Positions 2,650 to 10,580 of a stretch of 10,591 nucleotides of DNA are shown one piece after another. Source of the stretch: Candidatus Hydrothermarchaeota archaeon. Lineage in GTDB: Archaea > CAYFZR01. Each line of letters opens with the position of its first letter. The first letter of the stretch is position 1. A model generated the notes under the pieces. That model did not search any database. It worked only from the letters and a program-made list of their open reading frames with translations, and was not told where the DNA came from. Both the position numbers and the translations under genes were made by a program. The stretch is taken from contig JBHIEG010000041.1 of NCBI GenBank assembly GCA_046760505.1, forward strand, positions 1 to 10,591, written 5' to 3'.

Positions 2650-3939
2650 ATGAAAATGAAAAAGATCTGCGTCTTTGGATTAGGATACGTTGGATTACCC
2701 ACGGCAAGCATGCTTGCTACCCATGGATTCGAAGTTCTAGGAGTAGAGATCGATGAAAAAATAATAGAGTGTATAAACAGTGGAAACGCTCATATTGAAG
2801 AACCTGGTTTAAATACTTTGGTTAAGGCTGCTATCTTATCAAAAAAACTCAAGGCATCCAATAAACCGAGCGAAGCAGATGCATTCATGATATGCGTCCC
2901 TACGCCACTGGGTCCTGACAAAAAATCAGATTTAAGTTACGTTAAATCCGCTGCAAGATCAGCCATTCCTTATTTAAGAAAAGAGAACCTTGTCATCCTT
3001 GAGTCTACGGTTCCTCCTAAAACTACCGAAGAAGTTTTGGTTCCTATACTGAGAGAATCCGGACTTGAAATCGGCTCAGAATTGTACGTAGCTTATTGTC
3101 CTGAAAGGGTGATTCCGGGAAGAATAATTGTAGAAATGGTTGAAAATGACAGAATAATTGGAGGAATAAATGAAAAATCAGCATTGATGGCAAAAGAAAT
3201 ATATCAGACTTTTGTAGAAGGAGATATATTTATAACCGATGCTACAACGGCAGAATTTGTGAAATTAATGGAAAATACGTATAGAGATGTTAACATTGCT
3301 CTTGCAAACGAATTTGCTAAAATAGCTGAGAAAATCCATGTTAATGTATGGAATGCAATAGAATTGGCAAACAAACATCCGAGAGTAAATATTCATAAGC
3401 CAGGACCTGGCGTAGGAGGACATTGTATTCCTATCGACCCATGGTTTGTTGTAGAAAAATTTCCCCAAGCAGAGATGATCAAATTGTCTCGGAACATCAA
3501 CGATGAAATGATTTACTATGTATTTGATATGATAAAAGAAACTATTGGAAAAGAAAAAAGAAACATAACTATTTTTGGAGTTGCCTACAAAGGAAACATC
3601 GATGACACAAGAGGATCTCCTGCTAAGAGATTGATCGATATTTTGCTGAGAAAAAATTATAGTGTAAAGATATATGATCCTTTGGTGCGAAAATTTGAAT
3701 TTGAAATCAATGGCTTAGCCGATTCTGTGAAAAACTCGGATTGCATAGTTGTTTTAGCAGATCACGATGAATTTAAAAGAATAAAACTGGAGGAGATAAA
3801 GAAGATTGGCAAGTTAATGAGCGATAAAAATATTATAGATACCAGAAACTGCCTTGATCATGAAATTTGGAAATTAGCAGGGTTTAATGTTAGAATATTG
3901 GGCTCAGGGAAAAGCATAAACTCTGAGAAGTCTCCTTAA
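2650..3939 (+). CDS. wecC: Nucleotide-sugar 6-dehydrogenase, UDP-N-acetyl-D-mannosamine dehydrogenase (WecC) type
   Basis: GLGYVG Rossmann motif, ICVPTP, LESTVPP, CPERVIPG, KLMENTYRDVNIA, HPRVNIHKPGPGVGGHCIPIDP (catalytic Cys) and YKGNIDDTRGSP. Confidence 0.9.
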   Translation: MKMKKICVFGLGYVGLPTASMLATHGFEVLGVEIDEKIIECINSGNAHIEEPGLNTLVKAAILSKKLKASNKPSEADAFMICVPTPLGPDKKSDLSYVKSAARSAIPYLRKENLVILESTVPPKTTEEVLVPILRESGLEIGSELYVAYCPERVIPGRIIVEMVENDRIIGGINEKSALMAKEIYQTFVEGDIFITDATTAEFVKLMENTYRDVNIALANEFAKIAEKIHVNVWNAIELANKHPRVNIHKPGPGVGGHCIPIDPWFVVEKFPQAEMIKLSRNINDEMIYYVFDMIKETIGKEKRNITIFGVAYKGNIDDTRGSPAKRLIDILLRKNYSVKIYDPLVRKFEFEINGLADSVKNSDCIVVLADHDEFKRIKLEEIKKIGKLMSDKNIIDTRNCLDHEIWKLAGFNVRILGSGKSINSEKSP

Positions 3940-3973: not shown

Positions 3974-4005
3974 TCCTCCAAGATACACAGATACATCTTG
4001 GAGGA
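3974..4005. repeat. Perfect 11-bp inverted repeat between wecC and the ligase gene (terminator, operator or repeat remnant)
   Basis: TCCTCCAAGAT (3974-3984), 10-nt loop, ATCTTGGAGGA (3995-4005). A TATA-like TATTAATATA follows at 4008-4017. Confidence 0.6.
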
Positions 4006-4047
4006 ACTATTAATATAGATGTTCAACACTCTTTACAGATTGATTTT

Positions 4048-5454
4048 ATGAGAGGAGATGTGGGCTTTACCCATGGGATAGAAAAAGAGATCCAAGTAGT
4101 AAAAAAAGATGGCACGCTAGAACAAGATAAAGAGGATAAAGCCATCAGAGATTTTGAAAACATAATGAAATACGTTCCTGATAAGTATAAAGAAATCATA
4201 AATCTTCCTGGAAGTAAGAAAAAAGAAGGATACAGGCAAATATGGCGAGATCAGGGATGGCCAACCCAGTTGGAGATATCCACAAGACCCTGTTTCGATT
4301 TTGTATCTCTTAGAAGTGACTTAGAGAATCTATCTACTATTGTCAGCAAGGCTTGTAAGAAAGCAGATCTATCATTGATCGCGAGTGGGGCAAATCCTAT
4401 ATCTGAGCCTGAAGTGGGAGAGTACTTCGGAGAACACCATCATATAGGTATAGCAAGTGATGAGGAGAAAATATATGTTTATAATATGCTGAGGTGTTTT
4501 ACAGGAGAACTTATTGCCCTTACTGTAAATTCTCCCGTAAGAAAAGGAAGAGCATATACACAAAAAAGTTATAGAATAGGTAACAATCCTGCTGTAGGAC
4601 CTCCCCAAGGGGTTCCATACTTAAGGGAACTGACGGAAGAAGACTTTGGGGCAGATCCAAGACAATTAGATATTACTCCATTTTCCAATTATCCTACGGT
4701 GGAGATAAGGTTCTTTGATGTTCAAACATCCGTGTGCAGAAGCATTGGACTAGCAATAATATTACAGGCTCTGGCTCTAAAGGCAAGAAGATACCTGTAT
4801 AAACGTAAGGAAATACCTGAGATCTCCCAAGATATTATAGAACACAACAGAACTTATGGAATTAGAGCAGGATTAGATGCTGTATTCAGATCGGATAAAG
4901 ATATAGAAAACAGGTTTGCATACCATGGGAAAGGCATAACCAGATTGAGGGCGAGAGAAGCCCTGCATCATATGCTTGAGTTTATTAGACCAGAGATAGG
5001 GGAGTTAACAAAGAATCTATCACAAGATATGATTAAAAAATCTTTAAACCCTATATTTGCGAGTATTTACCCTAAAAATACAACAAAAGACGTGAGAAAT
5101 CAGCAGGGAGGTACATTGGCAGACTGGCAACTCACCCTCCTAAACAATGGCATAGATCATTTGATCGAAGAATTGGCAAATTGGACGTTAAAATCCTCTA
5201 AATTTGGAGTAGATCCCCTTCTGGTAGATAAAGATCCATCTAGAATATTGATGGATTATTTGGGTGTTGCAAAGAAAGAGCTCAGATTCCAGCCCGTGAA
5301 GTTACTCACACCAAAAGAGGTCAAATCAACAAAAGTAAAAAGAGTATACGAAGGAATAGTGGTTGAGCCCCCCAAGGGAGGGCCCATCAAGATTTTTGAC
5401 GTCAGGCCATATCGCTGGACGCTGAGGGTAACTAGAATAAGGCAACTGAGCTGA
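4048..5454 (+). CDS. Carboxylate-amine ligase, glutamate--cysteine ligase family 2 (GCS2/YbdK-like), divergent, with a basic C-terminal extension
   Basis: Ordered motifs THGIEKEIQVV (ExE), QLEISTRPC, LIASGANP, GEHHHIG, LIALTVNSP, SYR, DITP..YPTVEIRFFDVQ and NR..GIR.GLDA follow the GCS2 order. Confidence 0.85.
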   Translation: MRGDVGFTHGIEKEIQVVKKDGTLEQDKEDKAIRDFENIMKYVPDKYKEIINLPGSKKKEGYRQIWRDQGWPTQLEISTRPCFDFVSLRSDLENLSTIVSKACKKADLSLIASGANPISEPEVGEYFGEHHHIGIASDEEKIYVYNMLRCFTGELIALTVNSPVRKGRAYTQKSYRIGNNPAVGPPQGVPYLRELTEEDFGADPRQLDITPFSNYPTVEIRFFDVQTSVCRSIGLAIILQALALKARRYLYKRKEIPEISQDIIEHNRTYGIRAGLDAVFRSDKDIENRFAYHGKGITRLRAREALHHMLEFIRPEIGELTKNLSQDMIKKSLNPIFASIYPKNTTKDVRNQQGGTLADWQLTLLNNGIDHLIEELANWTLKSSKFGVDPLLVDKDPSRILMDYLGVAKKELRFQPVKLLTPKEVKSTKVKRVYEGIVVEPPKGGPIKIFDVRPYRWTLRVTRIRQLS

Positions 5455-6780
5455 CTATTCCTCTTTTTCCTCCTCAACCTCTTCTTCTTCCTCGACCTCT
5501 TCTTCTATTTCATCCTCTAACTCAGCCTCTTCTACAACTTCGACTTCTTCGACCTCTTCCTCTATTTCTTCCTCTGCTGGGGCCTCTGCTTCTTCCTCTA
5601 CCGTGACCTCTTTTTCAACTACAGGTACCCTGGGTCCTACGGTTATCGTAATTCTTTCTCCCATATCTTTGAAAAGTCTTCTGAGTTCTTCAGCATCAGT
5701 TCCGACATACATGGCTGCATTTGTGAGTTCTGAAATCTTTTGTAGTAACGGAATATCAACCTTCCTTGTTGCCTTAACATCTATGCTGCCATCTTCTTTT
5801 CTTTTAATATCGCCTATTGCGACCGTATAGATGAATATCCCTTTTTCTTGTGCTTTTTTTACAGCATCTAGGGGATGAACCTCGCTACCGTATTCAACGC
5901 CGTCCGTGATGAGAACTATGGATTTGAAGGAATCTTCCTTCCCTTCTCTCTCAAATATGTCCACTCCTGCCAAGATAGCATCTCCCATGGCAGTTAATCC
6001 ACCCAGACCCTCTTCCTTTGCGTTCAATAGATAGTCCTTTAACATTGGAAGGGTATCTTCGGTAACTCTGAATAGCATCCTGTTTTCGGTATCTCTTATT
6101 GCTATGGGCTTGTCGGCATAGAGTATGAATCCAACGTGATCTATTTTTCCCTGAATAGCCTTTGATTCGACGAATTGCTCAGCTGCTGCGATAGCAGCGT
6201 CCAATCTATTTTCGATTCCTTTCTCGAGATCTTTATAATCGTCGGTTATCATACTCGTGGAGAAATCTATGCAGATAACCGTATCTGCTACCTCAGGCTG
6301 TGTTGTAACTAAGAACTCAGTGTCTGGAAGCGGTATAGCTACTGCATCGCCACAATCCGGCTCAGTACTATCTAGCTGCACCTTTATATCTTCAGGGAGA
6401 ACCACAAACTGATTCTTAAGGAAAGGTCTCTCCCTCAAAATTTCGTACAAAGATGGTAACATGTTCACTTTCTTTCCATCTAATGCTGTGGCAGTAGATA
6501 TGTATCCTCTTTCGATCTCAACCGTCTTTTCAGCCTTGTAGACTTGTACTTCGTCTCCTTCATCAAGTAACCCGAGAACGTCTAGTATATCTGCGCCCAG
6601 TCCGATTTCTTTCTCCGAGACGTCACCTGGCTTTGCCTTGTATACTGCTTTTCCTCCTGGAGACTCAGCTATTACATAATCTCCCTCGCTTATTCCCAGA
6701 TCTTCCATGGTTGCTTGGTTGAGATATGCCTCTGGTTTGTACAACAGTTCTCTGAATATCTTTACATTAAGAATCTTCAT
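5455..6780 (-). CDS. Cdc48/VAT-N-like domain + vWA (MIDAS) domain + Glu-rich C-terminal tail
   Basis: aa ~1-160 carry two LG...GD.V repeats (MEDLGISEGDYV; LDVLGLLDEGDEVQV), then 'ERPFLKNQ...VQLDSTEP...PDTEF'. The vWA has CIDFSTSM, GLTAMGDAI, VLITDG and IYTVAIG. 33 of the last 55 residues are Glu. GGAGGTGA SD precedes the ATG. Confidence 0.85.
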   Translation of the reverse strand: MKILNVKIFRELLYKPEAYLNQATMEDLGISEGDYVIAESPGGKAVYKAKPGDVSEKEIGLGADILDVLGLLDEGDEVQVYKAEKTVEIERGYISTATALDGKKVNMLPSLYEILRERPFLKNQFVVLPEDIKVQLDSTEPDCGDAVAIPLPDTEFLVTTQPEVADTVICIDFSTSMITDDYKDLEKGIENRLDAAIAAAEQFVESKAIQGKIDHVGFILYADKPIAIRDTENRMLFRVTEDTLPMLKDYLLNAKEEGLGGLTAMGDAILAGVDIFEREGKEDSFKSIVLITDGVEYGSEVHPLDAVKKAQEKGIFIYTVAIGDIKRKEDGSIDVKATRKVDIPLLQKISELTNAAMYVGTDAEELRRLFKDMGERITITVGPRVPVVEKEVTVEEEAEAPAEEEIEEEVEEVEVVEEAELEDEIEEEVEEEEEVEEEKEE

Positions 6781-6793
6781 GCTTTCACCTCCT

Positions 6794-8080
6794 TCAATTT
6801 TCGTAAACTACCCGCTTTACCGTATAGTCTTTATTTAACGTGCTCGCTATTCGTTGAGCTATCTTTACGAATATTTCATCCAAGGATTCTGTTTTGTTTG
6901 TTGGTTTATAGGATAGAGCACAGTCTTTTACTAAAACTACATCATCTTCTTCAATAATCTTGCTTGATCTTATTGTATCTTCTTTTATACGAATAGACGG
7001 GACAAACACATACAGTTTTTTTTCCTTCTCCTTTGCTATAATGCTTACAGGTAAATCAAAGTTTTTATCAGTCGCATAAAGGTAAACATCTTTTGAAAAA
7101 TTGTGATTTTCCTTATCGATTGGATTTATCAGAGGTTCGACTTTACCTAAGACATTGTAAATCAGACTTGTCCATTTTCTCTTTATAAGATGAGCAGGAT
7201 CTTTGTCTACGGAGTTGATTACAGCAACTGCCCCGACGTAATTATTTTCTAAGCCCTTGATTTCTTTCCTTGTCTTTGCTATCATTTGTTTTGTGTATCC
7301 TTCTCTAGTGGTGAGATTGGCGATATTTTCGCCAAGGATCATCTTTTTATCCTCTTCAGATAGAAGATCGGTCTCCTGGATAAATTTTTTAGTTGTAAGG
7401 ATGTTTTTAGCCATCCCATAAGGCAAATCTGTTCCAAAAAGGATATTTGAGGGAGGCACGTGCTCAACAATGTTTTTTACGAATTCTATTCTATTTATGG
7501 AGAGTTCCAAATAGACAATGTCAGAAAACTTCAATGCAAGATCTATAGCCTTTTCAGTTCCCATTCCCTGAGAAAAAGAGTGTCCAAGAATAATTTTAGC
7601 ACCGGGGACGCTTTCCTCTACAGAATAAAGCAAAGATTCAAAATCCTCTGGCATATATCTTTGTTCTCCATTTACCCCGTAGTTAACTTCCGTATGGAAT
7701 ATCACTGGAACACTGAGGAGGCGGGCGTTTAATATTAGGTAGAGAACTTCATTACTGTCTACTCTGAATTTTTGCATTCTGGGGTGTAGTTTAACCCCCC
7801 TTAAGTTGAGGAATTTTACGCATCTTTGCAGTTCACTTATTGCATTCACGTGCTTAGGATCTATTCTACAGAAGCCAATAAACCTATCTTGAAACATGGA
7901 AATTTCTCGGCTAAGCTTGTCATTTGCCTCTCTGAAACACGATCCAGCATCTATTTCATCCATGGGAAATACTACAGCCCTATCGATGCCTAAACTCCTA
8001 AGGGCGAAGGATAGGGTTTTCGCACTCATTTGAGAGCCATCTTTGTCATTGCCTATGTGGGTATGAGCATCTATAATCAT
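6794..8080 (-). CDS. Metal-dependent amidohydrolase (TIM barrel, Amidohydro_2-like) with a ~170-aa C-terminal extension
   Basis: IIDAHTHIG (HxH), RGVKLHP, PVIFHT, IILGH, ILFGTDLPY and KKMILGENIANL close the barrel at aa ~257. ATGA overlap with the upstream gene. Confidence 0.9.
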   Translation of the reverse strand: MIIDAHTHIGNDKDGSQMSAKTLSFALRSLGIDRAVVFPMDEIDAGSCFREANDKLSREISMFQDRFIGFCRIDPKHVNAISELQRCVKFLNLRGVKLHPRMQKFRVDSNEVLYLILNARLLSVPVIFHTEVNYGVNGEQRYMPEDFESLLYSVEESVPGAKIILGHSFSQGMGTEKAIDLALKFSDIVYLELSINRIEFVKNIVEHVPPSNILFGTDLPYGMAKNILTTKKFIQETDLLSEEDKKMILGENIANLTTREGYTKQMIAKTRKEIKGLENNYVGAVAVINSVDKDPAHLIKRKWTSLIYNVLGKVEPLINPIDKENHNFSKDVYLYATDKNFDLPVSIIAKEKEKKLYVFVPSIRIKEDTIRSSKIIEEDDVVLVKDCALSYKPTNKTESLDEIFVKIAQRIASTLNKDYTVKRVVYEN

Positions 8081-8778
8081 TTAACTAGCCTCTCCAACAA
8101 TAGATTTACAGGCTTTGATCCTTCCACAGGCAAGTATGGTAATTGTAATTCAATCAAGTCATTTCCATCGTAGAAAAACACAGTCATCTCTTCTATTATA
8201 CTTCTGAGAGGAGATGAGTTGAGTATTAAATCTATCAATTCTTTTGTCTCCTCTAATTTTTCTTCAGTTATATCACAAACCAAGTAGAGATTTATTTTCT
8301 TATACTCCCCGGATACTGTTCTGATAGATGTCTTTTCATCGATTTTTGCTACCTCAAGCGGTAAGTTTTCTCGCCAGAGTTCTTGAACAAATGCTTTGAC
8401 ATCAATGACTGAAATCTTCTCTCCTTCCTTGAGGACTTTATTGCATAACGTTTTCCCATACTCCTTCTCATTAAATTTAGCTAAATCCGAGTTTTTTTCT
8501 ATCCTTAAGATTACCTCACTCGCTGTTGGTATATCAGCCATTCGATATGCTTCCAAAAGATCTCCCTCTAGCACAGAGGCCGAATCAGCAATGTCCAGTC
8601 CTAGTATAATCTCATTAGCTTCTAGATCCTCATTAAGTTCTACGGTGGCGAGTGTCTCGGTAAATCCTTTGACTAATACATTATCTCCCTCAGAAGATCC
8701 TAGAGCCAAGATACTCTCCTTGTTTAGCATTACTTTACCATCAATATTTTCAAGAATTTTTTTTACCAGAAATTCCAT
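8077..8778 (-). CDS. Cdc48/VAT-N-like domain protein with a short, probably degenerate vWA-like C-terminus; likely start ATG8778 rather than GTG8799
   Basis: 'VMLNKESILALGSSEGDNVLV...EIILGLDIADSASVLEGDLL' parallels both neighbours. C-terminal 'NLYLVCDIT-EEKLEETKELI..-MTVFFYD' echoes vWA beta1-alpha1-beta2 without DxSxS. GAGGT precedes ATG8778. Confidence 0.7.
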   Translation of the reverse strand: MEFLVKKILENIDGKVMLNKESILALGSSEGDNVLVKGFTETLATVELNEDLEANEIILGLDIADSASVLEGDLLEAYRMADIPTASEVILRIEKNSDLAKFNEKEYGKTLCNKVLKEGEKISVIDVKAFVQELWRENLPLEVAKIDEKTSIRTVSGEYKKINLYLVCDITEEKLEETKELIDLILNSSPLRSIIEEMTVFFYDGNDLIELQLPYLPVEGSKPVNLLLERLVK

Positions 8779-8788
8779 CTCTTTACCT

Positions 8789-9898
8789 CTATGCAGCACG
8801 AATCTTAAGTGTTTGGGCGAATTCTTTCCAGAGTTTTCTCAACTCATCAGGAGTTGCCTTGTAGACGCTACCTCCAGTTGGTTCAGCGAGGTATTTAAGA
8901 AAATCTATATCTGCGTCGCCAACTCCTACTCCAAAAAGGATTATACCCTGATCTTTTGCCATCGATGCTACCTTGTCTACGTCAGTCACATCGTAGTTTT
9001 TGCTGGCGTTTTCGTATCCGTCCGTAAGCAAGATTATTTCCTTTATGTTCTCTCCTTGGGATTTTTTTAGCATATCTATCGCATAGGCAGTAGCATCCAG
9101 TAGAGCGGTTATTCCTTCTGGCTTAATTCCCTTTATTTTTTCCTCGAAAAACTCCATCTTGTCTACATGCGCCGGGGTCATGGGAACGATTTCTTCTACG
9201 TCTGTGCTGTACGCAACAACACCTATATGCTGTACTAATCTTGCTGCACTTACTTTTGTCTTGAAAAACTCTATCGCTGCTTTTTTAGCTTCCTCAATCC
9301 TCTTTCCTTCCATACTGTTTGATTTGTCTATTACAAGTACAACATCCGATCCCACGTATCCACTTACGAGCGATATGTTTACCTCTATCCCTGTATCATC
9401 GGTTACCATACCCACCACGTTATTGTCTAAAGAAGGGGCGGACTTTTCAACCTGAATGTTGATGTCTTCCTGTACGATTAATATCTGATCTTTGATCAAG
9501 GGTCTACTCGAGAGAATTTTCTTAAGCAATCCCCTCCGGGTAAATGCATTTATCTTATCCACATCTATTCCGCTGCCACCGGGTCTAATAAGGAGGTCTT
9601 TCAACTCTACTACTGTCTCAGGAACCTCGACAACTACCTCATCTGCCTCCATTATTCCCAGAGAGTCCTGCAAATCTGTCCCTAATAACACTTCTCCTAC
9701 TTCCGCATAGATTTCGGTATAGGGGTCAGGATCTTTGGAAACAGCAATCGCGGCACTCGAATACTGGGGAGTCTTTAATATTATTGGGCTCATCTCTCCG
9801 ATATTAAGCCGCTCCATATCCTCTTTATTCATAACTACCGTCTGATCTCTTCTTATACCTCTATCACCAACAACAAAAGTCTCCACTTTCAACCCCAT
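8789..9898 (-). CDS. Cdc48/VAT-N-like domain + vWA (MIDAS) domain protein; first gene of the operon
   Basis: aa ~1-175: 'VVMNKEDMERLNIGE...EVLLGTDLQDSLGIMEADEVVVE...KKILSSRPLIKDQ...IQVEKSAP...VTDDTGIEV', as in the VAT/p97 N-domain. The vWA has LVIDKSNSM, GITALLDA, ILLTDG, FGVGVG and LAEPTGG. Confidence 0.87.
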   Translation of the reverse strand: MGLKVETFVVGDRGIRRDQTVVMNKEDMERLNIGEMSPIILKTPQYSSAAIAVSKDPDPYTEIYAEVGEVLLGTDLQDSLGIMEADEVVVEVPETVVELKDLLIRPGGSGIDVDKINAFTRRGLLKKILSSRPLIKDQILIVQEDINIQVEKSAPSLDNNVVGMVTDDTGIEVNISLVSGYVGSDVVLVIDKSNSMEGKRIEEAKKAAIEFFKTKVSAARLVQHIGVVAYSTDVEEIVPMTPAHVDKMEFFEEKIKGIKPEGITALLDATAYAIDMLKKSQGENIKEIILLTDGYENASKNYDVTDVDKVASMAKDQGIILFGVGVGDADIDFLKYLAEPTGGSVYKATPDELRKLWKEFAQTLKIRAA

Positions 9899-9913
9899 TT
9901 TTTATGTGTTGCG

Positions 9914-9930
9914 ATACTTAAATATCTTTG
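9914..9930 (-). promoter_or_regulatory. Putative BRE/TATA promoter for the leaderless Cdc48N-vWA operon
   Basis: Minus strand CAAAGATATTTAAGTAT, centred about 23 nt upstream of ATG9898, with no SD. Confidence 0.55.
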
Positions 9931-10088
9931 TGGATGATAAATGAAAATAATAAAAGAAGCAGAAAAAATCTCGTATTACGTAAAAGTTGATAATTTCGTG
10001 ATGTATCATTATATATAGACAGAATTGTGCAAAAAAGTAAAATAATATAGATTCAATTACTTTTTGTTGTATTTTGGAAGTGATGAAT

Positions 10089-10322
10089 ATGAAATGGGAA
10101 GAAATCTTTTCAGAGGGTATTAAGACGAGTGAGGGAGTGGAAATAAGGGTTAGTGTTGCTGAAAATCCAAGAGCAGGTATCGTTCTTGGGGTAAGAAAGT
10201 GGGTCCGAAGAGGCGACACAATGATACCTACGAGAGATGGAGCTGCGTTTCCTGCTACCAAAGAAACGGTGGACACATTAATTGAAATATTGCAGAAGAC
10301 GAAGGAGTTCTTGCCTGATTAG
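10089..10322 (+). CDS. PC4/YdbC-like small single-stranded nucleic-acid-binding protein
   Basis: 'EIRVSVAE....IVLGVRKW......PTRDGAAF......LIEILQK' matches the PC4 pattern (IRVS..E...D+R.W/Y...PTKKG+ then a helix). SD-like GGAAGTGA precedes ATG10089. Confidence 0.68.
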   Translation: MKWEEIFSEGIKTSEGVEIRVSVAENPRAGIVLGVRKWVRRGDTMIPTRDGAAFPATKETVDTLIEILQKTKEFLPD

Positions 10323-10329
10323 GCAGTAA

Positions 10330-10356: not shown

Positions 10357-10580
10357 CAATCTTTATTAAATGTTGACCAAAGGAACCTCCACCACCTTTT
10401 ATAAAGGTGGGACAAAAGTACTACTTCCTTCGGAGGTAGAACATCTCCCATACATTTTGCTTTGCTTTTTTCGAGGAGTTCTATTTGAGATGTTGAATTG
10501 CTTGCAATTCGACCTAATGATCTCCCTCCACCTTTTATAAAGGTGGATCAAAGGAACTACCTCTTCGAGATAGAGCAGCT
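10356..10580. repeat. Cluster of REP-like palindromic repeats and hairpins
   Basis: CCACCTTTTATAAAGGTGG is exact at 10392-10410 and 10528-10546, each followed by a CAAA.G.AC foot and a CTAC..TTC..TAG hairpin. A degenerate third copy lies at 10356-10386. GAATTGC-TT-GCAATTC lies at 10495-10510. Confidence 0.8.

Follow-up and report, generated by a model that had tools for sequence, protein, structure and literature searches.

A rare archaeal gene trio of a GCS2-type carboxylate-amine ligase, an Amidohydro_2 hydrolase and Cdc48N-vWA proteins, possibly acting on a macromolecular client

The stretch analysed here (hereafter the window) is the complete 10,591-bp contig G000:C41 of a Candidatus Hydrothermarchaeota archaeon, whose metagenome-assembled genome (MAG), G000, comprises 2.17 Mb in 142 contigs. 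Between positions 4048 and 9898 it carries five genes encoding a carboxylate-amine ligase, a metallohydrolase and three proteins in which a Cdc48N-type domain is followed by a complete or remnant von Willebrand factor A (vWA) domain. Ligase, hydrolase and Cdc48N-vWA protein (the trio) are inherited together, and their catalytic motifs and metal-ion-dependent adhesion site (MIDAS) motifs are intact. They may form a three-part archaeal module in which an amide-forming ligase, a hydrolase and Cdc48N-vWA adaptors act on a macromolecular client, a reading to which we assign a probability of about 0.42. The module, a glutamine synthetase (GS)-fold amide ligase with a hydrolase partner and a new adaptor family, is apparently undescribed. 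A full-text literature search, which did not cover the 2009 amidoligase survey or the 2008 supplements, returned no description of a ligase, vWA, Cdc48N and amidohydrolase combination, and PADLOC gave 0 matches for the five proteins, as expected from an initial annotation that had recognised no described system here. The features of the block are the following (coordinates, strand, product, basis):

4048-5454, plus strand: GCS2/YbdK-clade carboxylate-amine ligase, 468 aa (open reading frame (ORF), Pfam, NCBIfam, motifs)
9898-8789, minus strand: Cdc48N-vWA protein, 369 aa, first gene of the operon (ORF, Pfam VWA, AlphaFold2 (AF2) model)
8778-8077, minus strand: Cdc48N domain plus vWA remnant, 233 aa from the ATG at 8778 (ORF, Foldseek, VIA-align)
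8080-6794, minus strand: Amidohydro_2 metallohydrolase with a triosephosphate isomerase (TIM) barrel, 428 aa (ORF, Pfam, alignment)
6780-5455, minus strand: Cdc48N-vWA protein with acidic tail, 441 aa (ORF, Pfam VWA, paralogy)
9899-9930, minus strand: probable promoter and leader of the operon (with a TATA-like 'tatttaag' some 20-25 nt ahead of the ATG of the 369-aa gene)

The gene layout, the coordinates, the spacings and the convergent ligase are all as the initial annotation had described them. The four minus-strand genes are spaced by 10, -4 and 13 nt when the 233-aa gene starts at ATG 8778 (a GTG at 8799 is an alternative start giving 240 aa), and this layout fits a single transcript from 9898 to 5455, for which the segment 9899-9930 would probably serve as promoter and leader. 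Shine-Dalgarno-like motifs precede the internal starts (GAGGT for the 233-aa gene at ATG 8778, GGAGAGG for the hydrolase and GGAGGTGA for the 441-aa gene), and no such motif was found ahead of the start of the 369-aa gene. The stop codons of the ligase (5454) and of the 441-aa gene (5455) abut tail to tail with a gap of 0, and 108 nt lie upstream of the ligase start. A promoter and terminator scan remained at or below shuffle expectation, with bacterial models that are not applicable to archaea, and Rfam gave 0 matches in the window. Searching sequencing runs with 4048-9898 retrieved near-identical DNA in 4 runs (0.92-0.96 of words) from 1 study, a hydrothermal vent metagenome, and no RNA run was matched. 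All five proteins are predicted to be soluble, with no hydrophobic segments.

The association of the ligase with the operon, which the initial annotation had assumed, was borne out by comparison of loci; the refuting outcome named there, ligase orthologues that fail to co-occur with Cdc48N-vWA genes, did not arise. The host phylum is represented by two genomes in the genome set used, this species and its sister species G001 (in a 61-genome sample, all genomes except the sister species carry the label 'same domain' relative to G000). G001 carries the same five genes at locus L006, and the block 4002-10323 is collinear there at 82% nucleotide identity; this species is too close to inform on linkage. 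Three further loci, L009, L012 and L013, belong to a distant archaeal lineage (the MAG of L009 is labelled Aenigmatarchaeota). In them a ligase of 597-604 aa is followed, in the same direction, by a vWA protein of 372-381 aa and an Amidohydro_2 hydrolase of 408-409 aa, the latter interrupted by the contig end in L012. The 372-381-aa proteins contain a VWA domain together with weak CDC48_N and Molydop_binding matches. By blastp, the window proteins and those of the distant lineage are 38-42% identical for the ligase (E 2e-85 to 2e-88), 34-37% for the hydrolase over its full length including the C-terminal domain (E 3e-70 to 4e-75) and 25-26% for the vWA proteins over both domains (369-aa protein versus L013, E 1e-20; versus L009, 8e-19). 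In total, a Cdc48N-vWA gene and an orthologous hydrolase gene adjoin the ligase in 6 of the 6 loci inspected (window, G001/L006, L010, L009, L012 and L013). These represent two independent lineages, L006 being judged from ORF sizes and order plus blastp and L010 from ORF sizes and order plus nucleotide collinearity. Because the block is collinear in the sister species and the trio recurs in a distant lineage, the module is more than a chance arrangement. In addition, a Cdc48N-family gene and the hydrolase gene overlap, stop codon over start, by 1 nt in L009 and by 4 nt in three other loci (window, G001 and L013), an arrangement that points to translational coupling and to synthesis of both proteins in fixed proportion.

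The ligase and hydrolase subfamilies are both rare. When 5.8 billion proteins were searched by word index, the tight ligase subfamily yielded 7 matches (clusters), 5 of them close. HMMER, run in full over 1.84 billion representatives, returned 3 ligases at E <= 3e-207, followed by a gap down to 2.7e-68 (1355 matches at 1e-3 and 87 at 1e-30 in all). The subfamily is present in 2 of 401 sampled archaeal genomes and in 1 of 301 genomes of the phylum of G061, and ligase scans of genome and metagenome contigs led to 2 and 4 loci, respectively. The full-length hydrolase subfamily consists of only 6 clusters among the same 5.8 billion proteins, after which the E value drops from 7e-157 to 4e-56, to proteins of about 240 aa containing the catalytic domain only. 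Two of the ligase clusters, P0002 (Jordarchaeaceae) and P0004, come from contigs of 5631 and 4511 nt, whereas the hydrolase clusters compared with them come from contigs of 10083 and 4144 nt, a difference in length that says nothing on linkage. The word-indexed search with the 369-aa protein gave 8 matches, namely itself, its G001 orthologue and bacterial vWA domains, and the L009 and L013 orthologues were recovered through gene context only. A Cdc48N-vWA profile run over the 401 genomes found vWA-level matches in 100 of them; the matches covering the N domain were confined to G000 and G001, and the other listed matches, in 98 genomes, all begin at or beyond profile position 98 and comprise the vWA domain only.

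On sequence grounds the ligase is assigned to a divergent clade within the GCS2/YbdK superfamily, in agreement with the divergent GCS2-type enzyme initially annotated. Its Pfam GCS2 (PF04107) score of 20.9 bits lies just below the gathering threshold of 21 (E 2.6e-4), which the orthologues of L009 (43.2 bits) and L013 (45 bits) exceed. The NCBIfam carboxylate-amine ligase model matches at E 1.6e-21, the best score being 76.4 bits versus an equivalog cut-off of 371, which is not reached. Only GCS2 models matched: no glutamine-synthetase family appeared in the Pfam or NCBIfam lists, and no Pup_ligase family match was obtained at E <= 0.1. The only solved relatives are the YbdK structures 1r8g and 1tt4 (E 1.9e-6 for 1r8g when the ligase sequence alone was used as query, 1e-18 when a profile was used). 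The three catalytic motifs are intact: the GhExE signature G10-I-E-K-E14 (residues 10-14, nt 4075-4089), EHHHIG (residues 129-134, nt 4432-4449) and TVEIR (residues 217-221, nt 4696-4710) can be aligned with YbdK and do not vary among 6 sequences. GhExE is described as the Mg/ATP site common to GCS2 and PafA (PMC2588565, accessible part). The orthologous ligases of L009 and L013 bear an N-terminal two-helix membrane hairpin and a zinc ribbon. The C-terminal ~90 residues of the window ligase align with this ribbon, the cysteines being missing, and the window lineage would thus have lost both the hairpin and the zinc-ribbon cysteines that its orthologues kept. Many of the ligase-domain relatives P0022-P0091 are found inside very large proteins of about 870 to 3804 aa; in 8 of the larger ligase-domain proteins (631-2232 aa), Pfam recognised GCS2 only, plus sub-threshold MG2, TED and LacZ_4 matches that hint at beta-sandwiches. 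Klebsiella CfmP was rejected as a comparison, being an ATP-grasp enzyme and thus irrelevant.

The hydrolase (8080-6794, minus strand) passes the Pfam threshold for Amidohydro_2 (PF04909; E 2e-13, 51.2 bits versus a cut-off of 26.4, residues 3-254). Its HxH motif occupies residues 6-8 (nt 8057-8065), and H6, H8, K97, H99, H167 and D218 are invariant in an alignment of 10 relatives. The nearest solved relatives are the uncharacterised hydrolases 3nur (7e-12) and 3ij6 (8e-10). The C-terminal domain of ~170 residues (255-428, nt 6797-7318) is specific to the subfamily; an Atlas search with it found no family (best feature score 0.82, best TM 0.38). The genome holds a second, shorter Amidohydro_2 paralogue (G000:C51:393-1202) that is 29% identical over residues 1-257 and has no C-terminal domain, and a weaker match interrupted by one stop codon is located at C1:97621-98274.

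The Cdc48N-vWA proteins are recognised by Pfam through their second domain: VWA (PF00092) passes its threshold in the 369-aa protein (E 1.1e-22, 81.5 bits) and in the 441-aa protein (E 1.5e-11, 45.2 bits). The former consists of an N domain (residues ~1-177, nt 9368-9898) and a vWA domain (178-364, nt 8807-9367) with an intact MIDAS formed by D191-x-S-x-S195 (nt 9314-9328), T264 and D293. The latter has a Cdc48N-type domain at residues ~1-160 and likewise an intact MIDAS (D172-x-S-x-S176, nt 6253-6267). The complete set of DxSxS, T and D residues is present in four vWA proteins, these two and those of L009 and L013. In the 233-aa protein, residues 1-160 (nt 8299-8778) form the N domain, and the ~70 residues after it (nt 8080-8298) are a vWA remnant that corresponds to the first beta-alpha-beta unit, with D-I-T-E-E in place of DxSxS, the MIDAS lost and the remainder deleted; the 'degenerate vWA' of the initial annotation is thus a stub rather than a whole degenerate domain. 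The annotated poly-Glu tail of the 441-aa protein is also real (residues 388-441, nt 5458-5619; 54 disordered residues, 63% Glu+Asp, with a terminal Glu) and is limited to this genus, being common to the sister species and missing from the L009 and L013 orthologues.

The N-terminal regions of the three paralogues are homologous to each other, and the Cdc48N assignment, sub-threshold in Pfam, is backed by profile and structure searches. CDC48_N (PF02359) scores 22.9 bits in the 441-aa and 14.9 bits in the 233-aa protein versus a threshold of 35.1, and no match to it is listed for the 369-aa protein at E <= 0.1. A profile of 8 N-terminal regions searched against PDB sequences gave 38 matches at E <= 1, nearly all of them double-psi barrels or Cdc48/p97/VAT/NSF N domains; the best match over the full domain was the N domain of AtCDC48A (profile positions 16-155, E 0.008). 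AF2 models of the 369-aa and 233-aa proteins reached mean predicted local distance difference test (pLDDT) values of 73.1 and 66.5, respectively. The 233-aa model matches the p97 N domain 3qq7 in Foldseek (E 8e-8, TMt 0.53, 165 columns), and its residues 2-160 give VIA-align Z scores of 9.2-12.2 to the N domains of DEPDC5, NSF, p97, PEX1 and Sec18. According to these models, the N domains have the two-lobed Cdc48/NSF fold (double-psi barrel plus beta-clam). The 369-aa model aligns with the vWA domain of ANTXR2 (VIA-align Z 23.8, root-mean-square deviation 2.2 A, 175 residues aligned) and with that of Rpn10 (Z about 21). A complex prediction for the hydrolase and the 233-aa protein scored 0.00 in both runs, which were made without controls and do not bear on binding either way.

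The ligase-hydrolase pair is the older and wider core, and its third partner varies. Of the 401 genomes, 11 more contain distant relatives of the ligase (E 1e-16 to 1e-65), and in 8 of these 11 a related hydrolase lies within 2.5 kb; with G000 and G001 included, the pair is found within that distance in 10 of the 13 genomes having a ligase-family match at E <= 1e-15. In G606 the hydrolase is ~11 kb from the ligase, and G018 and G670 have no related hydrolase at E <= 1e-15. The f78 family accounts for 6 of these genomes; the ligase is directly followed by the hydrolase in 5, and two genes separate them in 1. A conserved ~600-aa protein with no Pfam match precedes the ligase in f78; it falls into an Atlas cluster of 150 hypothetical proteins, mostly from Promethearchaeota, which is likely its own cluster, and the Atlas search found no model for it. 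The f120 family (2 genomes) has a hydrolase abutting one of several ligase paralogues, in clusters that unite 6-7 tandem GCS2 ligases with two CN_hydrolases and a RimK-like ATP-grasp enzyme. Because the distant ligases pair with a hydrolase and no Cdc48N-vWA protein is present at any of these loci, the Cdc48N-vWA protein is an accessory third partner, specific to one clade. The initial annotation cast the Cdc48N-vWA proteins as readers, scaffolds or substrates; a universal reader they are not.

Some particulars of these clusters are recorded here. The f78 trio (L037 3662-8800, L038 6628-11708, L040 6496-11704 and L043 6639-14105; six archaeal genomes of 3.1-4.5 Mb) consists of a partner of 575-631 aa, a GCS2-like ligase of 554-582 aa and an Amidohydro_2-like protein of 510-519 aa, in this order, and its hydrolases have Asp at the equivalent of H129. 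The f120 arrays (L041, G621:C40, 6331-18851; L042, G601:C1), in which the Amidohydro_2 hydrolase abuts a further ligase, adjoin the gene of PheRS and that of a class I (Trp/Tyr-type) tRNA synthetase and look like dense clusters for making and breaking amide bonds. Another ligase-vWA association is seen at L007 (G018:C48, 1698-9857; phylum of 5 genomes), where a 364-aa GCS2 ligase, 37% identical to the window ligase, stands with three KaiC-like ATPases (one fused to an Arf/Ras-like GTPase), a Roadblock/LC7 protein, a vWA protein and a MoxR-type AAA ATPase, flanked by CD36-like and prominin-like proteins.

In the proposed module, the ligase would phosphorylate a carboxylate (by family precedent, the gamma-carboxylate of glutamate) and condense it with an amine to give an amide, which the hydrolase would remove or process. 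The Cdc48N-vWA proteins would be non-catalytic specificity or scaffold subunits, whose MIDAS site could grip an acidic group on the client and whose Cdc48/NSF-type N domain could grip a peptide or a partner. In this genus the adaptor would have given rise to three copies: one canonical, one reduced to a stub that lacks the MIDAS and one whose acidic tail ends in Glu. Both enzymes would act on a macromolecular client, most likely a protein, rather than on free metabolites. Pupylation offers a precedent: PafA probably goes back to a GCS2-like ligase, and some Pup ligases are anchored in the membrane (PMC2588565, accessible part). A protein client is tentatively favoured, at somewhat less than even odds, because the conserved third components are protein-binding domain types, because neither transporters nor further metabolic enzymes are conserved alongside the trio and because a membrane hairpin and a zinc ribbon are found in the orthologous ligases. 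The writer/eraser scheme of the initial annotation is plausible; the protein substrate that it proposed is putative, and its proteasome link is unsupported.

Several findings weigh against the proposed module. The trio is documented in just two independent lineages, and L009, L012 and L013 are 60-77% identical to one another. In the window proteins, both Cdc48N and GCS2 are under their Pfam thresholds, and the AF2 models, built from 8-row alignments, are of moderate confidence. The initial annotation's statement that amidohydrolases cleave C-N bonds is too simple for PF04909: the next solved relatives after 3nur and 3ij6 are C-C decarboxylases (e.g. gamma-resorcylate decarboxylase, LigW and ACMSD), and the characterised enzymes of PF04909 are mostly decarboxylases, hydratases or lactonases rather than amidases. 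There is no room in the window block for a Pup-like tag ORF, and none is present in the L009 and L013 lists of ORFs of at least 90 aa (smaller ones were not searched there). No proteasome or AAA gene is linked to the trio in the window, L006, L009, L012 or L013, and no AAA gene is found anywhere on the window contig, so the feeding of clients to Cdc48, PAN or the proteasome, as initially annotated, finds no counterpart in gene linkage. To these are added the distant pairs devoid of Cdc48N-vWA proteins, the different conserved partner of f78 and the f120 clusters, which by their gene content look like small-molecule or peptide chemistry. Finally, GCS2-like ligases with hydrolase neighbours and no Pup-like ORF have been read as peptide-forming by Iyer et al. 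in 2008 (PMC2588565, accessible part), and TIM-barrel amidohydrolases paired with gamma-glutamyl ligases, such as FluG and SCO6961/SCO6962, are metabolic precedents (PMC6478659, accessible part).

The f120 clusters, the pairs without vWA in 8 genomes and the two published interpretations just mentioned, together with the activity of YbdK itself on free amino acids (Lehmann 2004, as far as the source was available), all speak for small-molecule or short-peptide metabolism. In that case the ligase would make a gamma-glutamyl-type amide or peptide, the hydrolase would supply, recycle or degrade it, and the Cdc48N-vWA proteins would only regulate or scaffold. We judge this unlikely, if a serious contender, given that conservation alongside the trio extends to no transporter, no oxidoreductase and no further metabolic gene, that 1-3 non-enzymatic proteins of protein-binding type are conserved and translationally coupled to the hydrolase, and that a membrane hairpin and zinc ribbon are unusual for a soluble metabolic enzyme. 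A Pup-like cycle of tagging and untagging, whose marks the Cdc48N-vWA proteins would read and deliver to Cdc48, PAN or the proteasome, seems improbable. The ligase has the fold and signature of the PafA ancestor (PMC2588565, accessible part), the vWA domain resembles that of Rpn10 and the disordered acidic tail of the 441-aa protein has Glu as its last residue. On the other side, the vWA fold is generic, the tail is absent from the L009 and L013 orthologues, the candidate eraser is not a PafA or Dop homologue, and neither linkage to proteasome or AAA genes nor a Pup-like ORF was found at the loci examined. Two full-length Cdc48 genes elsewhere in the genome would fit a Pup-like cycle; archaea commonly carry Cdc48 genes, as here.

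A conflict, defence or cell-envelope-associated system is equally hard to credit. It would suit the frequency of vWA proteins in such systems, the PIN and MNT/HEPN toxin-antitoxin genes of the window, the patchy and very sparse distribution, the membrane-anchored ligase of L009 and L013 and the PKD, beta-helix and CarboxypepD_reg surface proteins that surround the orthologous loci. However, the surface-protein neighbours occur in one lineage only, the toxin-antitoxin genes are not conserved beside the block in G001, and none of the five proteins was matched by PADLOC. That the ligase is an unrelated gene adjoining the operon by accident is very improbable. It lies on the opposite strand in the window, and the sister species adds nothing on this point; yet the trio is co-directional in a lineage with only 25-42% protein identity, and relatives of ligase and hydrolase stand close together in 8 further genomes.

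Comparison with known systems places the proposed module near several of them. Like pupylation, it has a GS-fold carboxylate-amine ligase with GhExE and an enzyme able to undo an amide (PMC2588565, accessible part). Unlike pupylation, which is actinobacterial, it is found in archaeal hosts with neither a Pup-like ORF nor linked proteasome genes, and its candidate eraser is an Amidohydro_2 TIM barrel instead of a PafA paralogue of the Dop type. YbdK/GCS2 enzymes (1r8g, 1tt4) share the catalytic motifs of the window ligase, whereas the extra C-terminal region and the fixed association with vWA and hydrolase genes distinguish the latter. In FluG/NodGS and SCO6961-SCO6962, a TIM-barrel enzyme of the amidohydrolase superfamily is likewise coupled to a GS-fold amide ligase; that ligase, however, is of the GlnA/GSI type and not GCS2, and its setting, in the part of the source available, is metabolic or signalling and of small molecules, with no vWA or Cdc48N partner (PMC6478659).

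The adaptor proteins have their own parallels. DEPDC5/Iml1 has an NSF/Cdc48-like N-terminal domain (NTD) and, after it, a Sec23-trunk (vWA-like) SABA domain, the same domain order as in the Cdc48N-vWA proteins (PMC8534245, accessible part). In the structure searches, DEPDC5/Iml1 chains ranked first or close to it (Z 10.8-12.2 in VIA; 2.6e-9 and 3.8e-11 in Foldseek, 239-408 columns). The lead of DEPDC5 over p97 and NSF amounts to no more than about 1-2 Z units, and the model behind it has moderate confidence. Pfam IML1 (PF12257) had 0 matches at E <= 10 in the whole genome, and the likeness is one of fold and domain order only. The N-domain fold is also that of Cdc48, p97, NSF and PEX1, but no AAA+ domain follows it in the module proteins. 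Rpn10, ArnA-ArnB and vWA-MoxR pairs offer precedents for a MIDAS vWA as protein-binding adaptor (VIA Z for ArnAB 8s05, 20.1, beside the Rpn10 value above). In contrast to these, the module has no MoxR AAA+ gene, FHA domain, kinase or ubiquitin-interacting motif (UIM); its vWA is fused to a Cdc48N-type domain and its partners are a ligase and a hydrolase. The partner of ArnB is ArnA, a zinc-ribbon protein, according to the portion of the literature at hand, which is a loose parallel to the zinc-ribbon ligase of L009 and L013.

A more far-reaching version of the protein-client idea, which we consider only a faint prospect, is a form of archaeal protein conjugation independent of both ubiquitin and pupylation. 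The ligase would join a Glu carboxylate to lysines or other amines of client proteins, the hydrolase would remove the mark and the Cdc48N-vWA protein would select the clients; in this genus, that carboxylate could be supplied by the acidic tail of the 441-aa protein, which ends in Glu. The Cdc48N-vWA proteins would then correspond, in prokaryotes, to the NTD-SABA core of DEPDC5/Iml1 (GATOR1/SEACIT), and the ligase-hydrolase pair would have relatives widespread among Promethearchaeota (Asgard).

Should the proposed module be real, it would matter in that the bacterial Pup system arose from GS-fold carboxylate-amine ligases: with a second case, in archaea, write/erase modules based on amides would have evolved at least twice outside the ubiquitin world. 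The comparison also defines a wider, so far unnamed pair of ligase and Amidohydro_2 hydrolase in several archaeal lineages, some of whose genomes have a partner protein that clusters with Promethearchaeota (Asgard) proteins, and it indicates that the order Cdc48N then vWA, known from eukaryotic DEPDC5/Iml1, exists in archaea. The importance of the module is limited mainly by its rarity, the full trio being present in two lineages.

The remainder of the window contains genes of other kinds. Upstream of the module, a HEPN gene (261-716) overlaps a nucleotidyltransferase gene (713-1165), both of toxin-antitoxin type, and a second Polbeta-type nucleotidyltransferase gene is located at 1213-1626. 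A PIN domain protein gene (1851-2270) abuts an 88-aa ORF (2270-2536). The whole toxin-antitoxin-type region 261-2536 is not beside the block in G001. Directly upstream of the ligase, the 2650-3939 region encodes a UDP-glucose/GDP-mannose dehydrogenase; in G001 (L006 11014-13052), ~2.2 kb with two genes (349 and 320 aa) are inserted between the dehydrogenase and the ligase.

The contig end (10356-10591) is occupied by a multi-copy repeat built around the perfect palindrome CCACCTTTTATAAAGGTGG, of which two copies are present 136 nt apart. Elsewhere in the genome the repeat has 11 more matches, distributed over contigs C4, C11, C13, C30 and C33, at least one of them (C30) at a contig end, and it may have broken the assembly at this point. 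A copy of window positions 10422-10522, 90% identical, is found elsewhere on the G001 contig (L006 2883-2983).

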